Part shown: piece after piece, positions 8,601 through 49,561 of the stretch | Layout of the letters: every line of letters starts with the position of its first letter | Numbering within the stretch: position 1 is the stretch's first letter | IMG/VR virus record: IMGVR_UViG_3300044715_000866 | DNA length: 64,000 nucleotides | Direction: 5' to 3' (one strand) | From: a virus | Taxonomy: Duplodnaviria > Heunggongvirae > Uroviricota > Caudoviricetes | Notes under the pieces: generated by a model | Databases searched by the model: none | What the model was told of the DNA's origin: nothing | The model's input: only the letters and a program-made list of their open reading frames with translations | Translations under genes and position numbers: made by a program

Positions 8601-11600
8601 AGTCTAATGTAGCACTTACACCGTTAACTAACATACTTGTTATAAGTGTACTTGATAAAGTTAACCCGGGAATTTCAGCATTTGCTAATTCGATCGATTT
8701 CTCAATTCCTGCTTTAGTTAACCCTTGAAGCTCTCCAATTAACAAACTAGAAGATAGTCTTAAGAATGCTCTACCTGCATGTATTGCACGATAATTAGTA
8801 CCTAATATCGCATCAGTAACTACTGCATCAATTACATACCCTGCATCGCGTCGTGCCTTTACTTCATCGTACACTAAATTGTTTGATATTGGATTATACA
8901 TATACGGCGTTGTAGTATCTAACGTTAACGTTACTGTTTGAGTAGCAGCATTAAATTCAACAATGTCGTCAATTTGATAACGCTTTCCTCTAACATAAAA
9001 CGAACATGGCGGTTGTGGAGGTCTAACATCAAGTCCGCTGCTTTGACCAAACACAATTTTACCAGACGGCGTACTATCTGCAACTGCACTTAATACCACT
9101 GTAGCATTAGTCGATGGCGCAACTGGTAACGTTACACTTACAACATATTGTCTACTTTCAAATCCAGTACCTGTAATTTTAACACCTGGTTTTAATCCAA
9201 CAATGTTAACGATATTATTAACAACCATAGTAGTTGATAATCGTCCGCCACTTACATATGTACCAACTGCACTAGTTGTACCTTGTACTTTAATTGTAAG
9301 ACCTAAGTCAGTAATCTCTTTAATAGTGCCGTATACGCGACCTGCAAATCCGTCAATATATTGTCCACCTGCAAATCGTTTATAGTTGTTACTTTGTGAA
9401 AAACTAGAACATTCTTGAATGTACGGTGATTTAGTTTTAATGTTACCTTCTGGATCTAGAACCATTGCAAAGCCGCCTTGACCTTGGAACGTTACACCAA
9501 TAATACGATTACCTTCATTACATAAGAATACGTCAATTTCTTTATTATTTTTAGCAGGACTTGTTACATCTAATGGATTAGTTAAATAATGACGTCCGTA
9601 GTTAATAGTGTCAAACAAGAACCAGTTGCCGGCTAGTTTAGTAAATGCAGTTTCAAACGGATAAATTACCGTACAGTTCATTGTGTTACCACTAACTGAA
9701 TCAATAACTGCTTTTCCTCTTTTCTTATTGCCACCAGCAGGTATAACATTATCAGTAAACACTTTACCTACCCAACTTAATAATGCTTGGTAATTATTAC
9801 TTAACGTGATAATAATTTTACCACTAACACCGTCAAGCGTAGCAGTAATACCTAAAGAGACTAACGGTGCCGAATTTGAAGCATAATCAATAAGACCTAC
9901 TTCTAACGCATCAATAATTGCATCGCGATAGAAAAATACTCTACGCCACGGGCTTTGACTTTCTCTATCGATTGGACGAATAAGTGTTCTACGCATCTCG
10001 TCACCGCGAACTGAAACGTTTGCTGGAATTTTTAACGGAAAGTCTTCGTAATATATTCCGCTTTCTATAAATACTGAAAGATTTAAATCTCGTACTGTTT
10101 CACCAAATTCCAATTCTTCGCCTACTTTAAAGAAACCGGGTTTAGTTAATCGAACTTGTATTCTGTCTTTACCTGTTGATATTTCAGGTGTGTATTTTAC
10201 AATGCTAGCATACGCCCCTGATGCAGTTAAATTAGTTGACACCCGGCCAACTCCGACAATTATCTTAGCAGGAAAAATATCATTGCTTTTTGGAGCACCT
10301 TGGTCAACATAACCCTTACCGCCGTTGTCAATATCAATATTCCAAATTGCAGTACCGTGCGACGGCGTGGCTGCAAAACTAACACCGTAACGGATTATGT
10401 CTAATACACTATCTAAACTATCAGTAAATATTGCAGTAGCTTCATCTGAAATTTCAGACAGATAGCTGCCAACTACTCCAATGCTACTTGATGGTAGTAT
10501 TGCAGTTGATGAAAACGCAGTAAGCTGAGTTTCAGCTTGTTGGTATCGAACTGCTGTGTAACCTGTTAATACCTCTATACCTAAGTTTTTTGCAAATGCA
10601 ATACCGTCAAAAGATTGAACATAATGTGTGCCAATTGCAACTGATTTCGCGCTTGAGTTTTTGTAAAAACTTTTACCTGCAGTTATTGATTGCCAGTTTC
10701 CACCGGTAATAATATCTATTGCGGCTGCATCAACTATTAGTCCAATATCGCGATAACATAACGATTCATCATAATTAAATCCACCGCCAAACGCAGTATT
10801 AACATAATCAATAGAGGTATTTTCAATTACTTCGGCATTATTATTAATAATAACCTTTAAACTAATTGCATCAATGTATGTTCCACCAGTAAATATAGTG
10901 TCATCAACTGGGATACCCATATATAAGTCATTATCAATTGCAGTAGCTGCAGCTGTAAATTTTGTACCAATAAGGGTTGACGTTGCATTAGTATCATCGT
11001 CGTCGCTATGTCCGTTAACGATAGTTCTAGCGTATAACGAAGTTTTACTAATAACAGTTTTTGTAATAGCCGGCGTGCTAACTATTGTCATTTGATGTGC
11101 AGCTGCAACCGATGCTGCTGTCCCGCCGTACGTAATATCATAACATACTGAAATAATTAGTTTCCTTAAATCAACTGCTAATATAGCTAAAACATCTACG
11201 TCAGTGATACTTTCATCAATATCTAAATATGAGTTAACATCATTAATAATACTAGTAATAGCAGCATTATCTAAACGATTACGTGCGTTACGAATCCAGC
11301 CATTTGGTAGCGGTTGTGTAGTGCCGCCAGTTACATATGAATTTACTTCAACATTAATATCTGGATATCTTGGTAACTCTGTCGGAAGTTCACCTGACTT
11401 AATTATTGTGTCAATTTCAACAAACAACGCGTTAATTCTTTCTAAATAATTAGGATCGTTAATTACTGGGTAGAAGTGATCCATATACCATGATGCTGTA
11501 GTAGTAACATCTGAATTTGTGCCAACAGTGTATATAGATTTATCTAATTCTAATGCTGTAAAAAATGTTATTAAATCAGGTGTCCCAGCAGCAGAATTTG

Positions 11601-15035: not shown

Positions 15036-15066
15036 AAAAAAGGCAGCCTAAGCTGCCTTTTTTATT
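15036..15066. terminator. Bidirectional rho-independent terminator between convergent genes.
   Basis: The sequence is aaaaa aggcagc ctaa gctgcct ttttt. It has a 7-bp GC-rich stem flanked by an A-run and a T-run. Confidence 0.7.
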
Positions 15067-15598
15067 ATCCTGTATATCTACAATGGCTCTTCTTTGTTTC
15101 CCACAGCTCAACTGCAGTAACCTTTGCTACATCACCAATGCGTGATTGTGCATATTCAAACAAATACTTACAGATGTTTTCACTAGTTGGTACAAAATCT
15201 ACTAGTACAAAACTGTTATAATGTAACTGCTCACCTTCAGTTAATCCGACCCAGTTGCAAGTTCCTAAGTTAGTAAAGTTTGCAAATGGGTGTTCTGAAT
15301 TCCTCCATTCGTTACCTGTAATTAACTTAAAGTTTGGATCATTAATATCAATCATAAACTTATGATCTAGCACATCATCTACAAATTGTTTCATAAAGTT
15401 TAAATTCTTAAAGTCTGTAACCATTTCTGAATGATCTAAAGTATCAGAACCTAAAAATACTTTAATTGAATAGCTGTGTCCGTGTAAATGCTTGCAGGCA
15501 CAGTCAGTTGAAATACTTAACTCAACATGATTTAATTTTTGTGCCCATACTCTGTGTCCCATTTCAAAATGAAACTCTTTATCTATTTCCCATTTCAT
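15065..15598 (-). CDS. queD: QueD/PTPS-family 6-carboxy-5,6,7,8-tetrahydropterin synthase (T-fold).
   Basis: EFHFEMGHRVW aligns with the QueD N-terminal FEAAHRL motif. CKHLHGHSY matches the Cys-x3-His-Gly-His zinc/catalytic motif, and VLDHKFMID matches the LDHxxLND block. Its own sigma70-like promoter lies on the minus strand at 15626-15654. Confidence 0.8.
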   Translation of the reverse strand: MKWEIDKEFHFEMGHRVWAQKLNHVELSISTDCACKHLHGHSYSIKVFLGSDTLDHSEMVTDFKNLNFMKQFVDDVLDHKFMIDINDPNFKLITGNEWRNSEHPFANFTNLGTCNWVGLTEGEQLHYNSFVLVDFVPTSENICKYLFEYAQSRIGDVAKVTAVELWETKKSHCRYTG

Positions 15599-19810: not shown

Positions 19811-20155
19811 ATGAGTATTATACACAAAACAGCTAAAGGAAAACCAGTAGACATGAATAAACTGGTTACACAAAATGAACTTACTGTTGCAGTAAGTAAT
19901 GTTAGAATTAATGCAAGAGGTGATGAGTTAGGACCAGGTGGTCAAATTATTCACAAAAACGTTGAACCTGTTCATACCGGAGTGCCTGTTCAGCAGCAAT
20001 CAATCCGTGAAGTTGCTACCCCCGTTAAACCTGCAGCTCCTAAACCTGCAGCTCCTAAACCTACGTTTTCACCAGTAACTGATTCACCAAATGCACTGTT
20101 ACAACCTGCACCTGAATCAAAAGACGCTGATAAACAACCTAAAGGTAAACAATGA
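19811..20155 (+). CDS. Hypothetical Pro/Ala/Lys-rich protein (114 aa).
   Basis: RBS acggag. PAAPKPAAPKP is encoded by a 2x15-nt tandem repeat (cctgcagctcctaaa). Confidence 0.5.
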   Translation: MSIIHKTAKGKPVDMNKLVTQNELTVAVSNVRINARGDELGPGGQIIHKNVEPVHTGVPVQQQSIREVATPVKPAAPKPAAPKPTFSPVTDSPNALLQPAPESKDADKQPKGKQ

Positions 20156-20535
20156 TAGTTGACGGTACTTTAGATACTATTCATGATAACGTATTAATTA
20201 CTGACATGAATTTTGATGAGCAAGTAACTGCTGGCGGTATTATAGTCGGCAGCGATAATGGGAAAACAGAAGGTATTAAACCCCGATGGGGTAAAGTATA
20301 CAAAGTAGGTCCTGATCAACACGATATTACAATTGGTGATTGGATTTTAATAGAACACGGTCGATGGACTCGTGGTATTCAAATTAAAGACGATAACGGC
20401 AACGTTGTTACTGTTAGACGAGTAGAAACTAAGGCAATATTAGCAGTCTCAGATCATCAACCTACTGATATTAATCTAGGTAGATCAAACGCATCAACTG
20501 TACAAGAGTTTGACTTTAGTCAACCTATGTACTAA
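20152..20535 (+). CDS. GroES-like co-chaperonin (T4 gp31 / CocO analogue).
   Basis: 127 aa. TAGGIIVGSD...WGKVYKVGPD...IGDWILIEHG...ETKAILAV matches the GroES mobile-loop/AGGIVL/GxVxAVG/GDxV pattern. Confidence 0.6.
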   Translation: MIVDGTLDTIHDNVLITDMNFDEQVTAGGIIVGSDNGKTEGIKPRWGKVYKVGPDQHDITIGDWILIEHGRWTRGIQIKDDNGNVVTVRRVETKAILAVSDHQPTDINLGRSNASTVQEFDFSQPMY

Positions 20536-20556: not shown

Positions 20557-20585
20557 TTGACATTCTCCATTACTTACTATATAAT
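20557..20585 (+). promoter_or_regulatory. Consensus sigma70-type promoter (TTGACA-N17-TATAAT) upstream of the clamp-loader gene. The -35 hexamer sits in the loop of a 10-bp hairpin (20546-20572).
   Basis: The sequence is taatggagaa cttgaca ttctccatta cttacta tataat. Confidence 0.6.
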
Positions 20586-20617: not shown

Positions 20618-21538
20618 ATGGCAACAACATCGTTATGGGTTGAAAAATATCGTCCAAATACAATAGATAGCTACGTATTTAGAGATCAGCAGCAAAAAAA
20701 TCAAATAGACGGATGGATTAAACAGCAAAGCATTCCACATTTACTGTTTAGTGGTAGTGCTGGTATTGGTAAAACTACACTTGCAAAAATATTGTTTAAT
20801 GAACTAGATATTGAACCATTAGACATTTTAGAAATTAACGGATCACGAACTAACTCAGTCGACGACGTTCGTAACTTAATCACTAACTTTGTACAAATGA
20901 TTCCGTTTGGTGACTTTAAAGTTGTATTGTTAGACGAAGCAGATTACTTATCAGTGAATGCACAAGCAGCATTACGTGGGGTTATGGAAGAATATCATAA
21001 CACTGCAAGATTTTTACTTACATGTAACTATCCGCATAAAATTATTCCTGCTATACATTCAAGATGTCAAGGATTTCATATTGAAAAAGTTGATGTTGTA
21101 GAATTTACTGCAAGAGTAGCTACTATTTTAGTAGAAGAAAACGTAGAATTTGAGTTAGATACGCTTGACACGTTTGTTAAAGCAACTTATCCAGATTTAA
21201 GAAAATGCATCAACACTGTACAGATGAATAGTTTAAGTGGTACACTTTCAACTCCGTCACAAAGTGATACAGGAAGTAGTGACTATAAAGTAGAAATGGT
21301 TGAGCTATTTAAAGCAGGCAAGATATCCGATGCTCGTAAGCTATTATGTTCGCAAGCACGACCAGAAGAGATGGAAGAAATCTACAGATGGTTATATGAC
21401 AATATTAGTATATTTGGTGACGAAGCTACTCAAAATAAAGCTATTCTAATTATTAAACAAGGACTAGTTGATCATACTATTATTGCAGATGCAGAGATTA
21501 ACTTATCTGCTACATTAATACGATTAGGTAATCTATAA
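20618..21538 (+). CDS. 44: Clamp-loader AAA+ subunit (RFC small-subunit / T4 gp44 homologue).
   Basis: Walker A GSAGIGKTT, Walker B VVLLDEADYL and the RFC SRC motif IHSRCQ are present. KYRPNTIDSYVF matches the N-terminal RFC box II. The length (306 aa) is close to gp44. Confidence 0.85.
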   Translation: MATTSLWVEKYRPNTIDSYVFRDQQQKNQIDGWIKQQSIPHLLFSGSAGIGKTTLAKILFNELDIEPLDILEINGSRTNSVDDVRNLITNFVQMIPFGDFKVVLLDEADYLSVNAQAALRGVMEEYHNTARFLLTCNYPHKIIPAIHSRCQGFHIEKVDVVEFTARVATILVEENVEFELDTLDTFVKATYPDLRKCINTVQMNSLSGTLSTPSQSDTGSSDYKVEMVELFKAGKISDARKLLCSQARPEEMEEIYRWLYDNISIFGDEATQNKAILIIKQGLVDHTIIADAEINLSATLIRLGNL

Positions 21539-21599: not shown

Positions 21600-21809
21600 A
21601 TGTTGTTAATTTATTTTAAGGTGCTAGCTGTATTATTATTTTTTCTACTACAGTTTATTTTTGTACTACCGTACTACATGTCATCAGCTGAATGGTGGGA
21701 ATTTACATTAGGTTGGTTTATTTTATTAATCATTGATCCAATTGTAATTTACAAATTATGGAAGGATGCAGTTAAACCCGTTGACGAACTTTTTAAGGAT
21801 GTGAAATAA
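21600..21809 (+). CDS. Small two-TM membrane protein (69 aa).
   Basis: RBS aaggag. Two hydrophobic helices. A sigma70-like promoter lies at 21541-21569. Confidence 0.4.
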   Translation: MLLIYFKVLAVLLFFLLQFIFVLPYYMSSAEWWEFTLGWFILLIIDPIVIYKLWKDAVKPVDELFKDVK

Positions 21810-22660
21810 TGAATAAATTACTATTAGTTGCAGCAATGGCTACTGTACTTTCTGGCTGTTCAAATGTTAATGTAGGCGAAGTAGGCATTAAAGTACATTT
21901 ACTAGGCGGTGATAAAGGTGTTGACACTGAGCAATTAACTCCAGGACGTTATTGGATTGGTATAAATGAACAACTGTATACGTTCCCAACATTTATGCAA
22001 AACTATACATGGACTAGATCTCGTGCTGAAGGTCGTAACGAAGATGAGTCAATTACATTCCAAACTAAAGAAGGCCTTTCTGTAAACGCTGATATTGGTA
22101 TTACTTACACATTACAACCAGATAAAATTCCAGTTTTATTCCAAAAATATCGCAAAGGTATTGATGAAATTACACACGTTTATTTGCGTAATTTAGTGCG
22201 TGATGCAATTAACACCGAGTCATCTACTAAGTCAATTGACTCTGTTTACGGTGAAGGTAAATCGGATTTAATTAAAGCTGCTGAACATCGTGTTCGTGCT
22301 GAAGTTGAATCATACGGTATTGTGTTAGATCACTTATCTTGGGTTGGTGATATTAGATTGCCAGAGACTGTAACTGCTGCAATTAATGAAAAGATTGGTG
22401 CATCGCAACAAGCAATTACACGTCAGAACCAAGTTGAAACTGCTAAAGCACAAGCTGCAATTGCTATTGCACAAGCAGATGGTGAAGCTCAATCACGCCT
22501 ACTCGTAGCTGAAGCTGAAGCCAAAGCTATTCATTTAAAGGGCGAAGCTGTTAAAAACAACCCAGGAGTTGCTGAATTAAATGCAATTGAAAAATGGAAC
22601 GGTGTCTTACCAGTTACAATGTTACCAAACAGTTCAGTGCCGATGATTAATATAAAATAA
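21809..22660 (+). CDS. SPFH/band-7 (HflC/prohibitin-like) lipoprotein.
   Basis: Signal peptide plus lipobox MNKLLLVAAMATVLSGC. The SPFH core is GLSVNADIGITY...PVLFQKYR, followed by a C-terminal Ala/Glu-rich coiled coil (AKAQAAIAIAQADGEAQSRLLVAEAEAKAI). Confidence 0.8.
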   Translation: MNKLLLVAAMATVLSGCSNVNVGEVGIKVHLLGGDKGVDTEQLTPGRYWIGINEQLYTFPTFMQNYTWTRSRAEGRNEDESITFQTKEGLSVNADIGITYTLQPDKIPVLFQKYRKGIDEITHVYLRNLVRDAINTESSTKSIDSVYGEGKSDLIKAAEHRVRAEVESYGIVLDHLSWVGDIRLPETVTAAINEKIGASQQAITRQNQVETAKAQAAIAIAQADGEAQSRLLVAEAEAKAIHLKGEAVKNNPGVAELNAIEKWNGVLPVTMLPNSSVPMINIK

Positions 22661-22669: not shown

Positions 22670-24310
22670 ATGACTAACACTGATTGGGCAACTAATGTTG
22701 CCCTATCATCTTATACAGATGATGAATTTAATTTAGGTATTTGTGGATCGCATGACGCCTCAATTGCAATATCAAAAGGGAATAAAATCTTAGAAGTAGT
22801 TGAGATTGAAAAATTCACTGGAGAAAAACATGCTAATTTAATATTTAATACTGAAACACAAAAAGATATTAATAGCCACATTATTACCGAAGTATTAACT
22901 TACTTTAGACGCAAGTATCAAGCTAACACATATAACACTGTTTTTTGGAACTTGGTCTGTTACCACAACCAATGGTTAATGGATGACTTACCTACAGAAA
23001 TTAAAAACTTGTTCCCTTCGCGGAATTTTAAAAGATTTAGCCATCACTTATCACACGCATCAAGTGCATTTTATCAATCGCCGTATAATCGAGCATTAAT
23101 TATAACATTTGACGGCGGAAGCGATGAAGGATTATTAAATGTATATATCGGTAATGGAACTGACGATTTAATTCATTTATATAGTAATACTCGTAATTAC
23201 TGTGTTCCTTATGCAGTAATAGGCCATTTCATTTACGAGATTAAAAATGAACCAATCTATCAAATGGGGCAATTTACGTATCCGGGTAAAATGATGGGAT
23301 TAGCCGGGGACGGAGAAGTAGCTGACGATATTGAGCAAAATTTTACAAACTATTTCGAAGAAGTTGCAACTGCTAACTTACAAATACCTGAATTAATAGA
23401 TTGCTTTGCAAAACATATGAATATTTCAAATTCAGTACAGGCGAGTAAAAATACTGCAAAAACATTTGCCGCCACTGCTCAAGTAGTATTTGAAAAATTG
23501 CTACATGAAGAAATTGGTGGGTTCTTAAAGGCATCACACGGGTTGCCGATTGTGTTGTCAGGCGGTGGTGCATTGAACATTATAAACAATTCAAGAATAG
23601 CAAAATCTCATAAAGTATTTGTTCCGCCTAATCCGAATGATTCAGGGATTGCAATAGGATTGTTATGCAATGGTATTCGACCAAAAGAAAAGATAGATTG
23701 TGCATACCTTGGTCCAGACGCATTAGATAGCAGTACGTTAGAAGATGTTGTAGCGTTACGTAACGGCACTACTGTTGATCTAAATAAGCTTGCTGATAAT
23801 ATCATTGCAGGTAAAATTTATGGCGTAGTCCGAGGCCGATCTGAATGTGGGCCAAGAGCATTAGGTAATCGAAGTTTGATATGTAGTGCAATTATTCCTG
23901 AAATGAAAGATATCTTAAATTCTAAAATTAAAAATAGAGAAAGTTTTAGACCGTTTGCACCAGTTGTAAGATTAGAAGATGTTCACACATATTTTAAAAG
24001 TAAAGATGAATTAAGATTTATGTCATTTAATGTTGAAATTCATAAACAGTATGAATCACTATTATATGCAGTATCAAGTTCAGACAATACTGCTAGGGTA
24101 CAAACAATTACTCGAGAACAAAATGAATTCTTATACGATTTATTAACACTATTAGATAAAAAAGTCGGACATGGTATTTTGCTAAACACATCGTTTAATC
24201 TTGATGGAAAACCGATTTTAAACAAATATGCCGATGCATTAGACGTATTAGACACTAAAGATATAGACGGTGTAATCTTTGAAAATTATCTTATTGAAAA
24301 ATCAAAATGA
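22670..24310 (+). CDS. NodU/CmcH-family carbamoyltransferase.
   Basis: The N-terminal Kae1/YgjD-like block is LGICGSHDASIAI. The C-terminal hallmark GRSECGPRALGNRSLI matches GRxEFGPRALGNRS. The 546-aa length fits the family. Confidence 0.85.
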   Translation: MTNTDWATNVALSSYTDDEFNLGICGSHDASIAISKGNKILEVVEIEKFTGEKHANLIFNTETQKDINSHIITEVLTYFRRKYQANTYNTVFWNLVCYHNQWLMDDLPTEIKNLFPSRNFKRFSHHLSHASSAFYQSPYNRALIITFDGGSDEGLLNVYIGNGTDDLIHLYSNTRNYCVPYAVIGHFIYEIKNEPIYQMGQFTYPGKMMGLAGDGEVADDIEQNFTNYFEEVATANLQIPELIDCFAKHMNISNSVQASKNTAKTFAATAQVVFEKLLHEEIGGFLKASHGLPIVLSGGGALNIINNSRIAKSHKVFVPPNPNDSGIAIGLLCNGIRPKEKIDCAYLGPDALDSSTLEDVVALRNGTTVDLNKLADNIIAGKIYGVVRGRSECGPRALGNRSLICSAIIPEMKDILNSKIKNRESFRPFAPVVRLEDVHTYFKSKDELRFMSFNVEIHKQYESLLYAVSSSDNTARVQTITREQNEFLYDLLTLLDKKVGHGILLNTSFNLDGKPILNKYADALDVLDTKDIDGVIFENYLIEKSK

Positions 24311-24738
24311 AACAAAAGTTTAAACATGCTTTTATGAAAACGGCTTATACATTTGCGGAATTAAGTTCCGCAGTTAAGCTCAAAGTTGGTGCTGTTGTAG
24401 TTAAAGACGATAGAATTATTAGTCTTGGCTACAACGGTACACCTACCGGATGGGATAATACATGTGAACTTGAAATTATTAACTTTCAGGATGGATCTGT
24501 TCAACTTAAAACTAAATCAGAAGTTATTCATGCAGAAATGAATGCACTTATGAAATTAGCAAGTTCATCTGAATCTGGTAAAGGTGCAGCTATTTTTATT
24601 ACACATTCGCCTTGCATGGAATGTGCTAAAGGAATATACCAAACTGGTATAACTGAAGTATACTACACTGAAGCATATCGTAATGTAGATGGTATTGAAT
24701 TTTTACAAAAATGTGGTATAACTGTCGAAAAATTATAA
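24307..24738 (+). CDS. cd: dCMP deaminase (CDA-fold zinc deaminase).
   Basis: HAEMNAL...HSPCMECAKGI is the H(A/C)E...PCxxC zinc-binding signature. It is ATGA-coupled to the carbamoyltransferase. Confidence 0.8.
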   Translation: MKQKFKHAFMKTAYTFAELSSAVKLKVGAVVVKDDRIISLGYNGTPTGWDNTCELEIINFQDGSVQLKTKSEVIHAEMNALMKLASSSESGKGAAIFITHSPCMECAKGIYQTGITEVYYTEAYRNVDGIEFLQKCGITVEKL

Positions 24739-24740: not shown

Positions 24741-24770
24741 ATAGCAGCTGATTCCTCAGCTGCTATATTC
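24741..24770. terminator. Bidirectional terminator hairpin between cd(+) and phoH(-).
   Basis: The sequence is agcagctga ttcc tcagctgct, a 9-bp stem. The flanking sequences are A-rich and T-rich, but the runs are short. Confidence 0.55.
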
Positions 24771-24781: not shown

Positions 24782-25513
24782 CTAACTTTCCCCGTAGAGT
24801 GCCAAAACCTCTTTTACTGCGTTATGGCGTTCAATATCTTTATGCGTAAAATACGCAACATCAATATGGCTTAATGCCGTTTTATTGTTATCTAATCTAT
24901 CGATAAATTCTAATAAACCGTTATCATGCAAGCGATCAGCTTGTGCTAAATCCCCTGTTACAACCATACGTGAATTTTCCCCTAATCTAGTAAGAGCCAT
25001 CTTCATTTGATTAGGAGTTGTATTTTGAGCTTCATCAAAAATGATATACGCATTTTTGAAAGTTCTCCCTCTCATATAACTTAGTGGACTAATTTCAATA
25101 TCACCCTCAGCTAGAAATTTTGCAATGTCTGTCTGATGGTAATACTCGCCGAATACATCAAAAATAGGTCTTGTCCATGGCGCCATCTTTTCATTTAATG
25201 TGCCTGGTAAGAACCCTAATTCTTCATCTACCGATACTGCTGGTCTAGTTACAATAATCTTATCTATTAACCCTTCCTGAAATAATTTAATCCCATTTTG
25301 AACTGCTAACATCGTTTTCCCTGTACCTGCTGGTCCAACTGCAAACACAATGCTAGTATCTTCATCTTGTAGCATTGCGACATATTCTTTCTGACTTTGG
25401 TTGCGTGGGTTTAATGTTACGCTGTATCTTTTTGGTTTAATCAATTTTGGTTGTTGAAACTCAACTATGTTAACTTGCGATGTGAAACGTTTTTGTACTC
25501 GTTTTTGGGCCAT
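24782..25513 (-). CDS. phoH: PhoH-like ATPase.
   Basis: Walker A GPAGTGKTMLAV and the PhoH core ...IVTRPAVSVDEELGFLPG...VVTGDLAQ. RBS aggag. Confidence 0.85.
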   Translation of the reverse strand: MAQKRVQKRFTSQVNIVEFQQPKLIKPKRYSVTLNPRNQSQKEYVAMLQDEDTSIVFAVGPAGTGKTMLAVQNGIKLFQEGLIDKIIVTRPAVSVDEELGFLPGTLNEKMAPWTRPIFDVFGEYYHQTDIAKFLAEGDIEISPLSYMRGRTFKNAYIIFDEAQNTTPNQMKMALTRLGENSRMVVTGDLAQADRLHDNGLLEFIDRLDNNKTALSHIDVAYFTHKDIERHNAVKEVLALYGES

Positions 25514-25663: not shown

Positions 25664-26275
25664 ATGGCTACAGATGTATTAGATATTATTAAAAACATTC
25701 AAAATCTATATGAGAACAATTCAAGTCTAGCAGTGTTAAAAGATTTTGAAAGAGTACTCGACGAACTAGATTTGTATGTTTACAAAAACTGGGAAGATGG
25801 CGAATTAGCGTATGGACCAAAAGTTGACCGTCATTGGATTACTGTTGGGTTTATGTGGCCAAGAGATAACATGCCAGATCCAGCAGGCGGCAAACGATTA
25901 GCAGATTTAGGATGCAAAGTTAAGTATCAAAAATCACATATGGTTGAACCGCGACCAATTAAAACACCTGAAGATATTCGCCCAGGCACTAAAAAAGGTA
26001 AATTAGACCGACATCCAATTTGGATTGTAGAAATACAAATGCCAAAAAAATTAGCCTTTGATATGTATAAAGGTTATATGGATAAGCTAAAAAATGAAAA
26101 CATAGAACCGCCAAAAGAACCAGCACAACCTGCGGCTGCCCCGGCAGCAGGCGGAATGCCTCCAGCACCGGGCGGAATGGGCGGCGGAATGCCTCCGGCA
26201 CCGGGCGGAATGGGCGGCGGAATGCCTCCAGCACCGGGCGGAATGGGCGGCGGAATGCCTCCGGCACCGATGTAA
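25664..26275 (+). CDS. Hypothetical protein with a C-terminal Gly/Met/Pro-rich tandem repeat (PPAPGGMGGGM x3.5).
   Basis: 203-aa ORF whose 3' end is a GC-rich 33-bp tandem repeat. Confidence 0.6.
   Translation: MATDVLDIIKNIQNLYENNSSLAVLKDFERVLDELDLYVYKNWEDGELAYGPKVDRHWITVGFMWPRDNMPDPAGGKRLADLGCKVKYQKSHMVEPRPIKTPEDIRPGTKKGKLDRHPIWIVEIQMPKKLAFDMYKGYMDKLKNENIEPPKEPAQPAAAPAAGGMPPAPGGMGGGMPPAPGGMGGGMPPAPGGMGGGMPPAPM
26158..26272 (+). repeat. About 3.5 copies of a GC-rich 33-bp tandem repeat (gcctccRgcaccgggcggaatgggcggcggaat), in-frame inside the 25664-26275 CDS.
   Basis: Direct reading. The local GC is about 70 % against a ~37 % background. Confidence 0.85.
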
Positions 26276-26277: not shown

Positions 26278-27012
26278 ATGACTATGATTACAGAAAGTTT
26301 ACACGCACACGATCTTAAACACTTAATAAAGAAAGTTTTTGAAATTGATTCATATAGAAGTAAAATAGGCGACGATCAAGATGTAGTTGTTGTGTCGTTT
26401 ACTGTGGATCAAGAAGATCCTGCAAAAGATTTAGAAAATTTTGTAGAAATGGGTTATGATTTTGTTTTAGATGCAGATGTTAGCCCAGGTGAAACAGATG
26501 ACGGGAATTATAAAGTTTTTATTGAACTAGAAAGAAGCAGACATGCGGCTGAACAAATTCTTGAACTAATGGATGGCATTGAACAACTAACCGGAATGTC
26601 TGATATGAGATTTCGGTATTTTAAAAGTTTTAAAAGCCAAGATGCAAATTTAGAAAATTTAACTGCAGCAATACCTGTCGATAAAGATGCATACGACATT
26701 GCAACCAAACGAGACAAATTAGACAACTTTAGTAATTTCTTTTCAAATAGTTTTTCAGACGATGTTAGTGTTACTAACGAATCAATTACATTTAAAAGAA
26801 TTTGGACTGATCCGTTATCATTTGAGATAATTACTAGTGGTCCTAAACAAACAGTTTATAACACAATACAAGGTCCAATTATGTTGGAAGGTAGTGATAT
26901 TGCAGAAGTAATGTACTTTACAAAATGCATAGGTAACTACAATATTACCAAGGTTGGTAATACATTTATATTTGAAAACAGCGGATGGGCTGTTGCATTG
27001 GAGAAAAAATAA
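26278..27012 (+). CDS. Hypothetical protein (244 aa).
   Basis: ORF with RBS aaggatg. No recognisable motif. Confidence 0.55.
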   Translation: MTMITESLHAHDLKHLIKKVFEIDSYRSKIGDDQDVVVVSFTVDQEDPAKDLENFVEMGYDFVLDADVSPGETDDGNYKVFIELERSRHAAEQILELMDGIEQLTGMSDMRFRYFKSFKSQDANLENLTAAIPVDKDAYDIATKRDKLDNFSNFFSNSFSDDVSVTNESITFKRIWTDPLSFEIITSGPKQTVYNTIQGPIMLEGSDIAEVMYFTKCIGNYNITKVGNTFIFENSGWAVALEKK

Positions 27013-27632
27013 TGGCATTCACATTTACAGAAGCACACTTAGCAAAAATTATTCCAGGTAATTCATACATTTCAGAATGGTATGACGCATTATCATCTAT
27101 CTTACCAGAATACGATATTAACACACCAGAACGCGTTGCAGCATTCCTTGCTCAAACCGCTCACGAAAGCGGCAACTATACTGCATTAAAAGAAAACTTA
27201 AATTACAAAGCTGTAACATTGCAAAAAGTGTTTCCTAAATACTTTCCAACTGCAGCGTTAGCAGAATCATATGCCGGTAAACCAGAAAAAATTGCTAGCA
27301 AAGTATACGGCGGACGTATGGGCAACGGTGACGAATCTACAGGCGAAGGATACAAATTCTGCGGTCGTGGACTTATCCAATTAACAGGTAAAGACAACTA
27401 TACACGTTTTGCTGAAAGTTTAGAAATGGAAATTGATGAAGCTATTGAATACTTAGAAACATTTGAAGGTGCTGTACAAAGTGCTTGCTGGTTTTGGGAA
27501 ACTAATAACTTAAACCAATGGGCAGATAAAGGTGACATCATTACACTTACAAAAAGAATTAATGGCGGAACTATTGGAATTGAAGACCGTAAACATCACT
27601 ATGCTAACGCAATCAAAGTATTGAGTGCATAA
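27013..27632 (+). CDS. GH19 chitinase-like endolysin.
   Basis: AAFLAQTAHESGNY matches the GH19 catalytic box FxAQTSHET. KENLNY carries the second Glu. GRGLIQLTGKDNY is a conserved GH19 block. The start is moved to the ATG at 27013, immediately after the upstream stop; the track's 26985 start is an overlapping N-extension. Confidence 0.8.
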
Positions 27633-28132
27633 TGTTTATCTTACATTTCCTCCCTGATTCATATTTACTTTGGGCGGTTAACACAATCCTGCTATTAGGT
27701 GCTATTGGTACTATAGCAGGATTTTTTATTAAGTTTATTCCATTTTTAAATCATTACAAACTATTGTTAAATATACTGTCAACATTTTTACTAGTTGTAG
27801 GAGTTTACTTTAAAGGTGGTTATGGTGTTGAGATGGAGTGGCGTAACCGTGTAGCAGAACTTGAACAAAAAATAGCGATAGCAGAAGCCCAATCAAAAGA
27901 GGTTAATATCCAAATTGAAACTCGTGTGGTGGAAAAAGTAAAAGTTATTAAGGAAAAAGTATATGCAACCAAAAAAATTATTCAAGAACACAAAGAGATT
28001 ATTAACGCTGATTGTACTGTTCCTGATGTTGCAAGGGTGCTCTACAACAGTGCCGTTAACAATGAGCTTCCCGCAGGTACCTCCGTCCTTGATGGAGCCA
28101 GCACCAACGTTAAAGACATTATCTCAAACTAA
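27632..28132 (+). CDS. i-spanin-like (Rz-like) protein with N-terminal TM helices followed by a periplasmic coiled coil. It may be a holin-spanin hybrid.
   Basis: The TM segments are LLWAVNTILLLGAIGTIAGFFI and LLLNILSTFLLVVGVYF. They are followed by EMEWRNRVAELEQKIAIAEAQSKEVNIQIE. TAATG overlap with the endolysin. Confidence 0.55.
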   Translation: MFILHFLPDSYLLWAVNTILLLGAIGTIAGFFIKFIPFLNHYKLLLNILSTFLLVVGVYFKGGYGVEMEWRNRVAELEQKIAIAEAQSKEVNIQIETRVVEKVKVIKEKVYATKKIIQEHKEIINADCTVPDVARVLYNSAVNNELPAGTSVLDGASTNVKDIISN

Positions 28133-28262
28133 ACCAGAACTAAGTGATATATTAGAAAATGCTAGTGAGAATTACGGTTCTTACTATGAACTACGAGAAC
28201 GATATCTTGCATGGCAAGATTGGTACAAACAACAAACGAAAATATATGAGGACGTAAAATGA
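27963..28262 (+). CDS. o-spanin (Rz1-like outer-membrane lipoprotein), encoded in the +1 frame and overlapping the 3' end of the i-spanin gene.
   Basis: Signal peptide plus lipobox LMLQGCSTT, then a Pro-rich mature part (PLTMSFPQVPPSLMEPAPTL). Embedded/overlapped genetic architecture. Confidence 0.6.
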   Translation: MQPKKLFKNTKRLLTLIVLFLMLQGCSTTVPLTMSFPQVPPSLMEPAPTLKTLSQTKPELSDILENASENYGSYYELRERYLAWQDWYKQQTKIYEDVK

Positions 28263-28663
28263 AAAGAGTATTAGCAGTTATTTTACTTAGTATGCTATCT
28301 GGTTGCGCAGCAATGGATGCGTATTTTATGGCAAAATTTGATCAAAACGAATATCAATTAATCAATGACGTTCGGAGTCTTTCGCAAATAGGATCAGAGT
28401 TTTGTAGTAATCAACAACAAATGGTTCCTATTGTAGATCGTATATATTTAAAAAGTATTGAATTTAAAAACTATGCTGAATTTATACCAGAAAACAAAGT
28501 AACTATGAAACTATCAGAATCATTAATGGATTTAACAGAACCATTACATGTACGATATCATAAAACAGAAAAAATAAGTGAAGCATATTGTAAACAAAAA
28601 ATGGATATTTTAACAAAAGCGGCAACTACAATTGCCCAAACTATAGGGAGTAAACCACGATGA
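28259..28663 (+). CDS. Lipoprotein (134 aa).
   Basis: Lipobox MKRVLAVILLSMLSGCAAM. ATGA-coupled. Confidence 0.6.
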   Translation: MKRVLAVILLSMLSGCAAMDAYFMAKFDQNEYQLINDVRSLSQIGSEFCSNQQQMVPIVDRIYLKSIEFKNYAEFIPENKVTMKLSESLMDLTEPLHVRYHKTEKISEAYCKQKMDILTKAATTIAQTIGSKPR

Positions 28664-28944: not shown

Positions 28945-29394
28945 ATGGAAGAAAACAAAGAGGATTTTATGACAAAATATTGGCGCCCAATGATGGCAAT
29001 GACATACATGGCAACATGTTTGTTTGACTTTATTGTAGGACCGATTCTATACAACGTATTACAATACTATAACCCCGGTCAAAACTTAGACATGTGGCAA
29101 CCATTAACATTACAAGGTGGTGGACTTTATCACATTGCAATGGGTGTTGTATTAGGTATTTCGGCACACGGTCGTACACAAGAAAAAATTAACACACCGT
29201 CTTTACCTGGAATGGGTAGTTTCATGCCAGCACCGCAAGAATCACCAGCTCCGACTCCAGTTTATGCACCTGCGCCTGCACCGGTATATGTACCGCCAGC
29301 ACCTGCGCCTGCACCGGTAGTTGAAGAAGCTCCTGCACCTGTTAGAAAAAGACCGATGGCAAAACCAATTCCAAAATCAGATGAACCAATTTAA
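28945..29394 (+). CDS. Membrane protein with two TM helices and a Pro/Ala-rich C-terminal tail, a holin candidate.
   Basis: RBS caaggaacg. TM helices are YMATCLFDFIVGPILYNVL and LYHIAMGVVLGISAH. The C-terminus is PAPTPVYAPAPAPVYVPPAPAPAPV. Confidence 0.5.
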   Translation: MEENKEDFMTKYWRPMMAMTYMATCLFDFIVGPILYNVLQYYNPGQNLDMWQPLTLQGGGLYHIAMGVVLGISAHGRTQEKINTPSLPGMGSFMPAPQESPAPTPVYAPAPAPVYVPPAPAPAPVVEEAPAPVRKRPMAKPIPKSDEPI

Positions 29395-29714: not shown

Positions 29715-30539
29715 ATGACAGACTTTTATTCAAAATTAGGTGTGTCCCAAGACGCATCACAAGACGATATTAAAAAAGCATATCGTTCATTAGCAAACCG
29801 CCATCATCCCGATAAAGGAGGTGACCAAGCTGCATTTAAAGATATTTCTGTAGCATACGATACTCTAAGTGATCCGCAAAAACGTGCAGAGTATGATAAT
29901 CAACAACACGGACATCAGTTTGGGGGTGGACAACATTTCCATTTTGATATGAATGACATATTTGGACAACACGCACATTTTACTAATATGTTTGGAAATG
30001 GATTTAGACAACAACAACGCAACAAAGATTTAAACTTACAAGTACAAGTAACCCTTGTTGAATCTTTTAAAGGTAAACAAGTAGATGCATCATTTACATT
30101 GCCTAGTGGAAAACCGCAAACTGTTTCTATTAATGTACCAGCTGGCATTGATCACGGTGACACTATACGATACCAAGGATTAGGTGACGATTCTATTCCA
30201 AATATTGCTCGTGGAAATCTTAATGTAACAATTCACGTTATTCCGGATTATATATTTAGACGTGAAGGAAATGACGTGTTTGCTACATTAGAAATTAATC
30301 CAATTGAGGCAATGCTTGGCTGTATTAAATCGGTTAAAACTATTACTGGTGAAATAAAAAATGTAAGTATTAGAGCCGGAGTTGAAACTGGCACACACTA
30401 TGCTTCTGGACCGGGATTTACTAATTTACATAGTAAACAAACTGGACAATTTATTTCAGTTATTAAAATTAAAGTTCCTACAATTACTGATCCTGCACTA
30501 ATTGCACAATTACAAGCAATAAACAGTCAATTAAATTGA
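29715..30539 (+). CDS. DnaJ-family co-chaperone with a J-domain and a DnaJ C-terminal substrate-binding domain, but no zinc-finger region.
   Basis: DFYSKLGVSQDASQDDIKKAYRSLANRHHPDKGGD contains the HPD motif. The C-terminal domain is VQVTLVESFKGKQVDASF...VPAGIDHGDTIRYQGLGD. The start is moved to the ATG at 29715; the track's 29649 start is a TTG lying inside the promoter -35 box. Confidence 0.8.
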   Translation: MTDFYSKLGVSQDASQDDIKKAYRSLANRHHPDKGGDQAAFKDISVAYDTLSDPQKRAEYDNQQHGHQFGGGQHFHFDMNDIFGQHAHFTNMFGNGFRQQQRNKDLNLQVQVTLVESFKGKQVDASFTLPSGKPQTVSINVPAGIDHGDTIRYQGLGDDSIPNIARGNLNVTIHVIPDYIFRREGNDVFATLEINPIEAMLGCIKSVKTITGEIKNVSIRAGVETGTHYASGPGFTNLHSKQTGQFISVIKIKVPTITDPALIAQLQAINSQLN

Positions 30540-30595: not shown

Positions 30596-32896
30596 ATGGT
30601 CGAACCAAGCGAAAAACTACAAGCAATTTTTGACAAAGCTATTGCCGCAGCAAAAAACATGCATCATGAGTATGTAACACTTGAGCACGTATTGTTTTCA
30701 ATGCTCATGGAAGATGAAGGATTTACAAGTTCTTTACAGCATTTTGGTGCCGACACTACATTTTTAAAGAATACTGTACTAGATCATTTACAAACAAAAT
30801 GTCAAGAAATTACTACAGTTGACGTAGTAGTTAAACCTAAAAAAACTCAAGCTGTAGAACGCTCTTTAAATAGAGCGTTTACACAAGTGTTGTTTAACGG
30901 TGGCAATCGTATCGAACCAGCTGATTTTTTCTTAGCAATGCTAGGCGAGAAACGGTCATGGGCGTTTTATTATGTTGCACAGGTAAACATCACTAAAGAA
31001 AAGTATGCCGAGTATATACAAAATGTTACATCTGACGATGATGATGCAACAACAAGTTCAGTTAAACCTGGCTCACAAACACACAAAGCATTACAGGCGT
31101 ACACTACTAATTTAAACGAAGAAGTTAAAAATAACAAGATTGACCCAGTTATTGGTCGTGTAGACGAATTAGAACATATTGCGCTTGCGTTAGGACGTCG
31201 TAGTAAAAACAACGTTATTATGGTAGGTGATCCGGGTGTAGGTAAAACTGCAATTGCCGAAGGTCTTGCATATAACATTGTTAACGGTTCGGTTCCTGAA
31301 TTTTTAATAGATTACACTGTTTACAATTTAGATATTGCTGCTATGTTGGCAGGTTCTAAATACAGAGGCGACTTTGAAGAACGATTTAAACAAGTAATTA
31401 AGTCGTTACAGAAACTTGGTAAATGTGTACTATTCATTGACGAGGCCCATATGATTAGTGGTGCAGGTGCATCTGGTAATTCTTCTAATGATTTAGCTAA
31501 TATGATGAAGCCTGCACTTAGTAAAGGTAACATTAAAGTTATTGCAAGTACTACATGGGACGAATACCGTAAACACTTTGAAAAAGATCGTGCGTTAATG
31601 CGTAGATTCCAACGTATTACAGTTGACGAACCTACACAAGAAATGACTTTACAAATTCTTAAAGGTATTAAGAAGTACTACGAAGGTCATCACAAACTTA
31701 AAATTAAGGACGAAGCATTACAAGCGTCAATTAAATTATCTGTAAAATATCAAGCAGATAAAAAATTACCCGATAAAGCTATTGACTTAATTGATTGTGC
31801 TTGCTCACGGTTTAACTTAAAACTTGCAGATCAACGTGTAGTTACAGAAGCTGATATTCAGTTTGAATTAGCTAAAATGGTTAACATGCCAGTTGAACAG
31901 ATCATGCAAACTGAAACTAGTTCGCTAATTACATTGCAAGAAAAACTTGAAGCTGAAGTATTTGGTCAAGATACTGCATTAACTGAAATTGTTGACAAAA
32001 TTATGGTTGCACAAGCAGGATTAAAACCAGAAAACAAACCAATTGGTAGCTTTGTGTTTATGGGACCAACAGGGTGTGGTAAAACTGAAACAGCTAAAGC
32101 ACTTGCTAAACATTTAAATACTAAATTGTTACGTTTTGATATGTCAGAATATCAAGAGAAACACAGTATTAGCAAACTAATTGGCAGTCCTCCAGGTTAT
32201 GTAGGTTTTGAAGACAATGCAGGTTTGTTGATTACACAAATTCAAGAAAATCCAAATGCGGTATTGTTATTTGATGAGATTGAAAAATCACATCCTGATG
32301 TATCTACAGTGTTGTTACAAATGATGGACAACGGCTTTATTACAGGCTCAAATGGTAAACAAGCTGATTGCCGCCATATTGTATTAATTCTAACTACTAA
32401 TGCCGGTGCGCAATCTGCAGAAAAAAATCAAATTGGGTTTGGCTCTCAAGAAAAAGACTATTCAGATACTGATCTTAAGAAGTTTTTATCGCCTGAGTTC
32501 CGCAACAGACTAGATGGTGTTATTACGTTTAATAAGTTAGGAAAAGACACTATGGTTAAAGTTGTAAACAAGTTTATTGACGAAGTGCGTGAACAAGTTA
32601 AAGAAAAAGGCATTAAGATCAAAATTGATAAAGCTGCAACTAATTGGTTGTTAGACAACGGATTTGATGCTAAAATGGGTGCTAGACCATTACATCGCAT
32701 TATTGATAAAGAGATCAAACGTGATCTTGCTAAAATGATGTTGTTTGGTGATCTTAAATTAGGAGGATGGTTAACAGTAACAGTTGCAGATGATAAAATT
32801 GTACTTGTTTCTAAACCTAAAGCACTTAAAGTACCGTTACTTACTACAAAAGAAGTGTTAACATCAGACAACTTGTTTATTGAAGATGCTGATTAA
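30596..32896 (+). CDS. ClpA-like double-AAA+ chaperone/unfoldase (766 aa).
   Basis: Clp_N-like N-terminus. D1 Walker A GDPGVGKTA and D1 Walker B VLFIDEAH. D2 Walker A GPTGCGKTE, D2 Walker B LLFDEIEKSHPD and the sensor GARPLHR. There is no long M-domain, so it is ClpA-type rather than ClpB-type. Confidence 0.9.
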   Translation: MVEPSEKLQAIFDKAIAAAKNMHHEYVTLEHVLFSMLMEDEGFTSSLQHFGADTTFLKNTVLDHLQTKCQEITTVDVVVKPKKTQAVERSLNRAFTQVLFNGGNRIEPADFFLAMLGEKRSWAFYYVAQVNITKEKYAEYIQNVTSDDDDATTSSVKPGSQTHKALQAYTTNLNEEVKNNKIDPVIGRVDELEHIALALGRRSKNNVIMVGDPGVGKTAIAEGLAYNIVNGSVPEFLIDYTVYNLDIAAMLAGSKYRGDFEERFKQVIKSLQKLGKCVLFIDEAHMISGAGASGNSSNDLANMMKPALSKGNIKVIASTTWDEYRKHFEKDRALMRRFQRITVDEPTQEMTLQILKGIKKYYEGHHKLKIKDEALQASIKLSVKYQADKKLPDKAIDLIDCACSRFNLKLADQRVVTEADIQFELAKMVNMPVEQIMQTETSSLITLQEKLEAEVFGQDTALTEIVDKIMVAQAGLKPENKPIGSFVFMGPTGCGKTETAKALAKHLNTKLLRFDMSEYQEKHSISKLIGSPPGYVGFEDNAGLLITQIQENPNAVLLFDEIEKSHPDVSTVLLQMMDNGFITGSNGKQADCRHIVLILTTNAGAQSAEKNQIGFGSQEKDYSDTDLKKFLSPEFRNRLDGVITFNKLGKDTMVKVVNKFIDEVREQVKEKGIKIKIDKAATNWLLDNGFDAKMGARPLHRIIDKEIKRDLAKMMLFGDLKLGGWLTVTVADDKIVLVSKPKALKVPLLTTKEVLTSDNLFIEDAD

Positions 32897-45151: not shown

Positions 45152-45889
45152 ATGAAAGACTTTTTACAAGATTTAGTAGCACATACACATACATTAACCG
45201 TTTTACCATTAGTTAAAGTAACTGCAACTGCAGAAAATGCAGTGATTGAATCAGTAGCAGAAGATAGATCAGTAATGCTGTACGCAACTACACATACGCC
45301 AGTTAATGGTCTCGAACCATGCATCTTTGGTATGCCAAATTTAAACAAATTAGACTTACATCTTAAATGTCCAGAATATAAAACTGATGCAACTATTAAA
45401 GTTGTACAAGAAACTAGAGATGGTGTAAAAATCCCAACAGGGTTACACTTTACTAATGCAACTGGTGATTATGAAAATGATTATAGATTTATGAATGAAG
45501 AAATCGTTAGTGCAAAAGTAAAAAGACCAAAACTTAAAGTAGAAATAGTGTATGATTTAGATTTTATTCCAACAGGTGTAAGTATTCAAAGATTAAAACA
45601 TCAAGCTGCTGCACATACTGAAGAAACTGTATTTCAACTAGTAACAGTTGATAACGACTTAGTATTTAGATTCGGTGATGCTAGTACACACGCAGGCTCA
45701 TTTGTATTCCATCATAACATTAATACTACATTAAAAAATACATGGTCATGGCCAATTACTCCAATTTTAAGTATTTTAAACTTAAATGGTAACTTAACTA
45801 TGAAAGTTTCAGATCAAGGTTCGTTACAAATTATAGTTGACAGTGGTATTGCAGTTTATAACTACACTATTCCAGCATATACAAAATAA
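45152..45889 (+). CDS. Hypothetical 245-aa protein. Its size and position immediately downstream of the polymerase, with its own consensus promoter, are compatible with a sliding-clamp-like accessory protein, but no motif supports this.
   Basis: RBS aggag. Consensus promoter at 45102-45130. Confidence 0.5.
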   Translation: MKDFLQDLVAHTHTLTVLPLVKVTATAENAVIESVAEDRSVMLYATTHTPVNGLEPCIFGMPNLNKLDLHLKCPEYKTDATIKVVQETRDGVKIPTGLHFTNATGDYENDYRFMNEEIVSAKVKRPKLKVEIVYDLDFIPTGVSIQRLKHQAAAHTEETVFQLVTVDNDLVFRFGDASTHAGSFVFHHNINTTLKNTWSWPITPILSILNLNGNLTMKVSDQGSLQIIVDSGIAVYNYTIPAYTK

Positions 45890-49042: not shown

Positions 49043-49043
49043 T

Positions 49044-49256: not shown

Positions 49257-49257
49257 A

Positions 49258-49512: not shown

Positions 49513-49524
49513 TCTTATTTTTAA

Positions 49525-49548
49525 CTGAAAGCCCTACGGGGCTTTCAC
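49525..49548 (+). terminator. Stable hairpin without a U-tract, a possible terminator or RNA processing element.
   Basis: The sequence is gaaagccc tacg gggctttc. Confidence 0.3.
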
Positions 49549-49561
49549 CGCAGGACATATT

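Follow-up and report, generated by a model that had tools for sequence, protein, structure and literature searches.

The phage genome fragment catalogued in IMG/VR as IMGVR_UViG_3300044715_000866 (Caudoviricetes) was analyzed over a stretch of 64,000 bp, hereafter referred to as the window. Two overlapping genes on its forward strand, encoding a carbamoyltransferase (hereafter CT) and a dCMP deaminase, are the subject of this analysis, together with the likely acceptor of the carbamoyl group:

22670–24310, forward strand: carbamoyltransferase of the TobZ/NodU/CmcH family, 546 aa, PHROG 1601 ('Nol-like carbamoyltransferase')
24307–24738, forward strand: dCMP deaminase of the S-TIM5 cyanophage type, 143 aa, with HAE and PCxxC zinc motifs

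A preliminary description of the window, made from the sequence and its translations, had placed both open reading frames (ORFs) at exactly these positions. For CT it had preferred a role in producing a carbamoylated DNA base, with carbamoylation of the cell surface or of a secondary metabolite as its alternative.

CT is a full-length O-carbamoyltransferase of the TobZ/NodU/CmcH type, as that description had proposed. The protein contains both Pfam domains of the family, Carbam_trans_N (PF02543, E-value 2.4e-24) and Carbam_trans_C (PF16861, 5.4e-54), which make up a Kae1/ASKHA-like N-terminal and a YrdC-like C-terminal domain, and PHROG 1601 aligns with it over residues 22–543 (1.6e-98). The two motifs that had been singled out as N- and C-terminal hallmarks, HDASIAI and GRSECGPRALGNRS, are both present, the former as GSHDASIAI at residues 26–34 and the latter at residues 389–402. 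Matches to sequences of solved structures in the PDB range from 1e-35 to 1e-43 and include NovN (3.3e-43) and TobZ (7e-40). An AlphaFold model of CT (pLDDT 86, pTM 0.87) superposes on TobZ over its full length (TM-score 0.78, E-value 8e-39), and GdmN, NovN and VtdB also match the model (TM-scores of 0.74–0.78).

Active-site residues were compared using TobZ numbering mapped through the PDB alignment (offset +6; H14 is named in PDB titles). In the alignment to TobZ, the mutated TobZ residues H14, K443, M473 and S530 correspond to H28, K421, M451 and S508 of CT. Residues H28 (in GSHDAS), H125 and H129 (in HHLSHA), D148 and D324 are invariant over 18 relatives, and we take the His/His/Asp/Asp set among them to be the counterpart of TobZ H114, H118, D137 and D338, positions that reportedly form the metal site in the 2012 work of Parthier and colleagues. 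K421, M451 and S508 of the carbamoyl-phosphate/ATP site are likewise invariant in the alignment of relatives, as is the GPRALGNRS loop, and by these residues CT looks catalytically intact. Residues 1–18 form a clade-specific N-terminal extension that is modeled with low confidence.

CT thus has the full-length fold and the catalytic and ligand residues of TobZ, NovN, GdmN, VtdB and NodU/CmcH, although identity is just 20–24%. At 546 aa it is shorter than NovN and GdmN (670–700 aa), whose C-terminal extensions it does not have, and it differs from the bacterial O-carbamoyltransferases in being encoded by a phage, outside any natural-product or Nod-factor cluster. The best solved-structure matches are antibiotic-tailoring O-carbamoyltransferases and no sugar gene adjoins CT in this genome, which would agree with carbamoylation of a non-glycan small molecule, either from the host or resembling a secondary metabolite, in the manner of NovN, TobZ, GdmN and VtdB. 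We consider this unlikely. Antibiotic enzymes are the only members of the family in the PDB, so that sampling explains the resemblance; the groups that NovN and TobZ carbamoylate are themselves sugars; CT is not accompanied by a biosynthetic cluster; and its viral relatives, examined below, indicate pathways of nucleotide sugars and glycosyltransferases instead.

The identification of the downstream gene as a dCMP deaminase also held. Its product matches dCMP_cyt_deam_1 (1e-22), carries its zinc motifs as HAEMNA and PCMEC, and aligns end to end (residues 1–143) with the S-TIM5 dCMP deaminase (PDB 4p9c, E-value 4.8e-37), to which it is 50% identical by tblastn, as well as with T4 Cd (3.4e-21). 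It is a small phage-type enzyme with no notable difference from either protein, and homologs occur in 1326 phage records. Its probable metabolic partner (dCMP to dUMP to dTMP) is a thymidylate synthase encoded near the right end of the window:

61772–62539, forward strand: ThyX flavin-dependent thymidylate synthase (Pfam Thy1, 2.5e-40)

The deaminase start codon overlaps the CT stop codon as ATGA at 24307–24310, in agreement with the preliminary description. The window contains 60 pairs of adjacent genes on the same strand, of which 8 are joined by an overlap of this kind and 30 overlap in some form; the junction between CT and the deaminase therefore says little about a functional link.

The same description had been unable to assign its proposed chemistry to a characterized phage system. 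Such a system exists: a phage NodU-family enzyme converts 5-hydroxymethylcytosine (5hmC) to 5-carbamoyloxymethylcytosine (5cmdC in DNA), consuming carbamoyl phosphate and ATP and accepting 5hmC in single-stranded DNA, double-stranded DNA and RNA as well as 5hmdCTP, but not 5hmdUTP (Yang et al., 2021, eLife 10:e70021, PMC8670742). In that study, carbamoyltransferases on cytosine-modified contigs co-occur with a thymidylate-synthase homolog, PRA-PH/MazG and dCMP deaminase, those on unmodified contigs are flanked by glycosyltransferases, and the positions of TobZ W408, G421 and R423 tell the two groups apart (PMC8670742). CT could by analogy be a 5-hydroxymethyl-pyrimidine carbamoyltransferase, producing 5-carbamoyloxymethyl-C or -U and coupled to its deaminase as in the MetaGPA 5hmC-CT system. 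The chemistry occurs in phages, dCMP deaminase and MazG/PRA-PH do accompany DNA-modifying carbamoyltransferases (PMC8670742), and genuine cassettes end in a dCMP deaminase. This phage, too, has a MazG/PRA-PH gene, CT lies in an early-type operon with a clamp loader and the deaminase, and the overlap of CT with the deaminase is kept in a sister lineage despite only 58% identity between the CT proteins.

At the protein level the resemblance is limited. CT shares the superfamily and both Pfam domains with the enzyme of Yang et al. (2021), and presumably the mechanism based on carbamoyl phosphate and ATP, and a dCMP deaminase lies near each of them. BLASTP, however, aligns the two over 281 C-terminal residues only (27% identity, E-value 8e-15), and NovN and TobZ score higher. 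The residues at TobZ positions 408, 421 and 423 are V, G and R in CT, I, C and T in the Yang enzyme, and L, C and T in its IMG/VR relative L097. Relatives of the Yang enzyme carry C at position 421 in 114 of 115 sequences and T at position 423 in all 115, within the motif GPRA[LM]C[NH]T[ST], whereas every relative of CT with a matched motif (101/101) has G and R at these positions, within GPRALGNRS; position 408 does not discriminate among viral carbamoyltransferases. A neighbor-joining tree of 103 viral carbamoyltransferases separates CT widely from the Yang enzyme and L097, which occupy a long branch of their own.

The gene content of the cassettes differs as well. On the contig studied by Yang et al. 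(L101) and on two others (L102, L097), the carbamoyltransferase gene is followed by two ORFs and a ThyA-like hydroxymethylase gene, and on L101 and L102 then by dCMP deaminase and DNA ligase genes. The two intervening ORFs have no Pfam match on L101 and L102; on L097, the N-terminus of one resembles P-loop kinases and the other is MazG-like by guess only. A ThyA-like gene lies at most 3 kb from the carbamoyltransferase in all members of the 5hmC-CT clade that were checked (the same three contigs), while CT is accompanied by the deaminase alone, with neither the two intervening ORFs nor an adjoining kinase. The genome, possibly that of a jumbo phage, measures at least 133 kb, and about 91 kb of it were inspected here: the window, flanks of about 11 kb on the left and 8.5 kb on the right taken from encoding contigs, and about 8 kb of structural genes added by a metagenome scan (an exact-pattern scan of IMG/VR with the right end of the window gave no match). 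The preliminary description had suggested looking for a ThyA-like hydroxymethylase, and no PF00303/ThyA-like gene was found in these 91 kb; a search with E. coli ThyA and T4 gp42 probes matched only L097. The single MazG/PRA-PH-like gene lies about 30 kb from CT, outside the window; of the two companion genes only the deaminase is adjacent, and both types are common in phages that do not modify cytosine. Two ORFs of 401 and 266 aa beside the MazG-like gene were considered as cryptic hydroxymethylases and showed no resemblance on inspection. Of 80 viral relatives of CT, not one has a ThyA-like gene nearby, and a dCMP deaminase gene occurs near a single one (L065), at a locus that also contains glycosyltransferase-like ORFs as judged by eye. 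The genomic backgrounds are also distinct, Yang-type genomes encoding PolA on contigs of at most about 55–73 kb, as opposed to PolB and a relationship to phages Phosso and PA5oct in the genome studied here.

Sequence similarity, signature residues, cassette composition and phylogeny all place CT outside the 5hmC-CT class, and it is very probably not an enzyme of that type. A 5-hydroxymethyl-pyrimidine acceptor is accordingly very unlikely, and the carbamoylated base preferred at the outset failed on clade, signature residues and cassette alike. Adjacency to a dCMP deaminase does not in itself make a phage carbamoyltransferase a DNA-modifying enzyme. A more useful discriminator is the combination of GPRA[LM]C[NH]T[ST] with a ThyA-like neighbor for DNA-type 5hmC carbamoyltransferases, and of GPRALGNRS with PF11397, O-FucT or GDP-sugar neighbors for glycan-type viral ones, which can be used to sort the many auxiliary genes annotated as 'carbamoyltransferase' in marine phages. 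The literature library searched contains no follow-up work on 5cmdC, and a paper on DNA glycan hypermodification makes no link to carbamoylation or cyanophages.

Searches of sequenced phages with CT (tblastn) retrieved 142 matching records, mostly from marine cyanophages, together with Pelagibacter phage HTVC008M and jumbo phages of Xanthomonas and Stenotrophomonas. Identity to CT reaches 42.8% in S-SCSM1 and 34% in XacN1 among cultured phages, and 38–49% in more than 100 metagenomic members. In the neighbor-joining tree, CT, P0002 and P0003 branch beside the S-SCSM1 group and are nested in a clade that includes S-SCSM1, L017–L019, L033, P0017 and P0036; each of these seven entries has glycan genes as neighbors. 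The S-SCSM1 gene (gp117) lies between an O-fucosyltransferase gene and genes for mannose-6-P isomerase, GDP-mannose dehydratase and GDP-fucose synthase, in a cluster that also contains 2-oxoglutarate (2OG) oxygenases; the XacN1 gene (ORF333) has glycosyltransferase genes on both sides; P0017 is found with a radical SAM enzyme, epimerases and a DegT aminotransferase; and P0036 is accompanied by an epimerase, an O-FucT+GlcNAc glycosyltransferase, a GlcNAc glycosyltransferase and a second carbamoyltransferase. The 2OG oxygenases of these clusters were considered as TET-like DNA oxidases and set aside, their Pfam families being PF13640 and PF13759 rather than Tet_JBP.

The same context emerges from a Pfam census of 128 genes located within 2.5 kb of the carbamoyltransferase in 27 of the closest IMG/VR loci. 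The families counted there include PF11397 GlcNAc glycosyltransferases (21), HtrL_YibB (10), O-FucT (9), GDP-mannose dehydratase (6), epimerase (6) and FkbM methyltransferase (5), in addition to GT2, GT10, GT11, HPAT and collagen repeats, and no thymidylate synthase or deaminase family appears among the 25 families listed. At least one strictly defined sugar gene occurs within 6 kb of the carbamoyltransferase in 25 of the 30 closest loci and in 41 of 80 overall. In one homolog (P0023), the carbamoyltransferase part, 46% identical to CT, is naturally fused to an N-terminal PF11397 glycosyltransferase, and this fused domain is homologous (E-value 2e-23) to a glycosyltransferase encoded by the phage studied here:

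16756–17664 of contig L014: PF11397 glycosyltransferase (Pfam, 4.9e-27), following a 2014-aa fiber gene

Natural fusions of this kind could point to the acceptor pathway used throughout the viral carbamoyltransferases. Extra sequence is also present in P0098, with about 330 additional N-terminal residues, and in the XacN1-type proteins (XacN1 ORF333, L036, L044, L047), which are about 765 aa long and contain extra domains. In L008, a phage-like contig of 315 kb, a gene for AmoC (ammonia monooxygenase subunit C) was observed about 700 bp downstream of the P0017 homolog, with one ORF between them and both lying among sugar-modification genes.

CT shares with the PHROG 1601 proteins of S-SCSM1, XacN1 and HTVC008M the two-domain architecture and the GPRALGNRS motif, and their usual PF11397 companion is also encoded by this phage. 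It differs in its 18-residue N-terminal extension and in its position, lying between a Band7 lipoprotein gene and the deaminase gene where its relatives have glycan genes beside them. CT adds a somewhat divergent member to an already known group of phage auxiliary genes, distributed among cyanophages, pelagiphages and jumbo phages, for which virion glycans or host envelope glycans are candidate targets. The preliminary description had held that its DNA-base proposal would be undermined if the closest homologs were O-antigen, nodulation-factor or antibiotic carbamoyltransferases of host genomes and the phage DNA carried no carbamoyl adduct; the closest homologs do belong to glycan clusters, though to viral rather than host ones, and it is the cell-surface, or glycan, side of its alternative that this context favors.

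On the basis of family membership, catalytic residues, exclusion from the 5hmC-CT class, the glycan context of its relatives and the natural fusion to a glycosyltransferase, we consider CT to be probably an O-carbamoyltransferase acting on a glycan, and the deaminase to be an unrelated enzyme of thymidine supply. The acceptor, whose class and identity we infer, is most likely a sugar hydroxyl. In the proposed mechanism, the YrdC-like C-terminal domain would form carbamoyl-AMP from carbamoyl phosphate and ATP, as in TobZ, and the metal-containing Kae1-like N-terminal domain would pass the carbamoyl group to the acceptor hydroxyl. The acceptor sugar would belong to a glycan built or remodeled by the phage, presumably assembled with the PF11397 GlcNAc-type glycosyltransferase encoded beside the giant fiber genes, and located on a virion protein (plausibly a fiber), on another protein or on a host envelope polysaccharide. 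Virion glycosylation has a precedent in mycobacteriophages, according to the mention of Freeman et al. (2023) in PMC12619734, and the authors of the S-SCSM1 study assumed host envelope polysaccharide to be the target of the glycan cluster of that phage. The deaminase would convert dCMP to dUMP for the phage ThyX, contributing to dTTP supply in a genome that is 65% A+T (the G+C content of the window is about 35%). Compact packing of genes in this lineage, rather than membership of one pathway, would account for the common operon and ATGA junction of the two genes.

Several observations weigh against a glycan acceptor. In this phage and in the sister contigs L006 and L007, the 6 kb on either side of CT are free of glycan genes, and the phage's own PF11397 glycosyltransferase is encoded about 30 kb upstream, just outside the window. 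CT is probably co-transcribed with the clamp loader and the deaminase from a predicted sigma-70-type promoter, which would place it in an early, replication-type class rather than a late structural one. The acceptors of glycan-type viral carbamoyltransferases are predictions from gene context. To these may be added the precedent of DNA carbamoylation in phages with deaminase and MazG/PRA-PH companions, the overlap kept in the sister lineage, and the inspected share of the genome given above.

Genes for Band7, CT, deaminase and PhoH follow one another in the same order in the sister lineage (P0003, on contigs L006 and L007), where CT and deaminase again overlap by 4 nt. This conservation reflects collinearity of the whole region rather than a specific link between the two genes. 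Relative to L007, CT is 58% identical, compared with 83% for the deaminase, 87% for Band7, 94% for the clamp loader and 95% for PhoH, so that CT evolves in the manner of an arms-race accessory gene and independently of the deaminase, being either fast-evolving or exchanged by recombination. Compared with carbamoyltransferases from glycan clusters, the clade of CT has no internal insertions, its sole insertion being the 18-residue N-terminal tail, and clade-specific substitutions affect just 9 conserved positions and are mostly conservative. Neofunctionalization of the clade was considered and rejected on these grounds; as far as the alignment can tell, nothing suggests a change of acceptor class.

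The genes surrounding CT and the deaminase are organized as follows:

20557–20585, forward strand: perfect sigma-70 consensus promoter (TTGACA-17-TATAAT), found by consensus scan
20618–21538, forward strand: clamp-loader AAA+ subunit, gp44/RFC-like (DNA_pol3_delta2, 4.3e-15; AAA, 9e-15), first gene of the unit
21600–21809, forward strand: 69-aa hydrophobic membrane protein, identified from its sequence, without a family match
21809–22660, forward strand: SPFH/Band7 protein with a lipoprotein signal (LSGC lipobox; Band_7, 1.9e-26)
24741–24766, no strand assigned: GC-rich hairpin with an 11-bp stem, between the converging deaminase and PhoH genes
24782–25513, reverse strand: PhoH-like ATPase (PhoH, 3.3e-73), convergent neighbor outside the unit

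The promoter probably starts a transcription unit that contains CT and the deaminase and reads, in order, clamp loader, 69-aa membrane protein, Band7 lipoprotein, CT and deaminase, with the hairpin as a probable bidirectional terminator closing it. Five perfect promoters of the form TTGACA-N16-18-TATAAT occur in the window, where chance would give 0.17, and all are intergenic and on the forward strand (20557, 29649, 41860, 45102 and 52049), preceding the clamp loader, a DnaJ-like gene, an 84-aa ORF at 41920 located before PolB, a clamp-like gene and FolE, respectively. Promoter-like sites of all kinds in the region match expectation (25 versus 25.3), so only those with perfect consensus exceed chance; these five look like early or middle promoters read by the host sigma-70. 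CT and the deaminase had been described as lying beside phoH and the clamp loader in a nucleotide-metabolism context. PhoH is indeed directly adjacent, in convergent orientation, while the clamp loader is two genes away, separated from CT by the membrane protein and Band7 lipoprotein genes. With these genes and a nearby lysis cassette, the context is a mixture of replication, membrane and nucleotide functions and not purely one of nucleotide metabolism.

The probable lysis cassette lies on the forward strand about 2.2 kb downstream of the CT-deaminase pair (26985–28663). It consists of a GH19-like endolysin (26985–27632), a membrane protein (27632–28132) and two lipobox proteins, one of which (27963–28262) runs out of frame across the 3' end of the membrane-protein gene, a spanin-like arrangement; the other is encoded at 28259–28663.

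The phage has no close cultured relative at this locus, since the 7 kb around the gene pair gave no match by megablast against INPHARED. Its family-B DNA polymerase is 42–49% identical to those of large phages such as Sinorhizobium phage Phosso, Atu_ph07 and Xanthomonas phages, and gene order around the polymerase agrees with that in Phosso, PA5oct and ACP17. Metagenomic contigs carrying the same CT protein reach 133 kb in length. Next to the polymerase gene lies a module (45152–54762 of the window, with a further gene at 15065–15598 on the reverse strand) that was compared with L100 (Phosso), L103 (ACP17) and L104 (PA5oct):

46274–48169: large protein of 631 aa, 34% identical to PA5oct EST35_0316
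48683–49042: very conserved protein of 119 aa, 52–59% identical in Phosso, ACP17 and PA5oct, without a Pfam match
49562–50659: GT-B-like protein of 365 aa, 36–47% identical in Phosso, ACP17 and PA5oct
51059–51589: phosphoribosyltransferase
52104–52775: FolE
53920–54762: QueE-like radical SAM enzyme
15065–15598, reverse strand: QueD/PTPS

QueC, QueF and DpdA/TGT were not seen. The module may represent an uncharacterized pathway of 7-deazaguanine-type DNA modification, and we regard it as a more intriguing feature of the window than the CT-deaminase pair. An ORF of 216 aa between FolE and QueE (53283–53933, forward strand; 207 aa in the variant contig L013) has no Pfam or PHROG match, but its N-terminus resembles, by eye, GIY-YIG/Seg-type homing endonucleases; it may therefore be a mobile element that has inserted between the deazaguanine genes.

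Such a module could in principle supply CT with an acceptor other than a hydroxymethyl pyrimidine, namely the aminomethyl group of a dPreQ1-like 7-deazaguanine, to be N-carbamoylated, or a DNA-linked sugar attached by the GT-B-like enzyme, to be O-carbamoylated. The window does encode FolE, a QueE-like radical SAM enzyme and QueD/PTPS, with the GT-B-like protein and the conserved 119-aa protein interleaved in an arrangement common to Phosso, PA5oct and ACP17, and the DNA of PA5oct has been reported to carry modified G (PMC12191111). CT is nevertheless located 25–30 kb from the FolE/QueD/QueE genes, and its relatives belong to clusters for glycans of protein or polysaccharide type. Moreover, the ten organism names listed, out of eleven, for the 142 records matching CT include no phage of Pseudomonas (host of PA5oct), Sinorhizobium (Phosso) or Acidovorax (ACP17), so that CT probably stands outside the conserved pathway of the module. 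As QueC, QueF and DpdA were not seen, an aminomethyl acceptor is not predicted. Distance and the missing listed matches together make a link between CT and the module unlikely, and we consider decoration of such a base highly improbable.

A broader scenario would have CT recruited from glycan clusters into the replication-phase operon of a marine or freshwater relative of Phosso, PA5oct and ACP17, there to carbamoylate phage DNA. One conceivable target is a hydroxymethyl pyrimidine whose synthesis would depend on a gene in the part of the genome beyond the 91 kb; another is a sugar or side chain installed by the FolE/QueD/QueE/GT-B-like module. We see little prospect of this being the case; if true, it would imply a carbamoylated hypermodified base not yet described, and any action of CT on DNA would amount to a second, independent origin of DNA carbamoylation.

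Beyond these genes, the window contains a giant ORF of 3835 aa (2641–14148, reverse strand), and two more lie just outside it, of 2014 aa (L014, 10630–16674) and 2619 aa (L011, 10825–18684). All three show hints of fn3 and Calx-beta domains and are presumably fibers; a protein with a Peptidase_S74 chaperone domain is encoded between the 3835-aa and 2014-aa ORFs (1956–2585). A set of chaperones comprises a GroES-like protein (20152–20535, with a weak Cpn10 match), a DnaJ-like protein (29715–30539) and a ClpB/ClpA-type double AAA+ protein of 766 aa (30596–32896). Finally, a 203-aa protein encoded at 25664–26275 on the forward strand ends in four tandem Pro/Gly/Met repeats of the type GGMPPAPGGMGG, and other Pro-rich tails occur in the products of 19811–20155 and 28945–29394.

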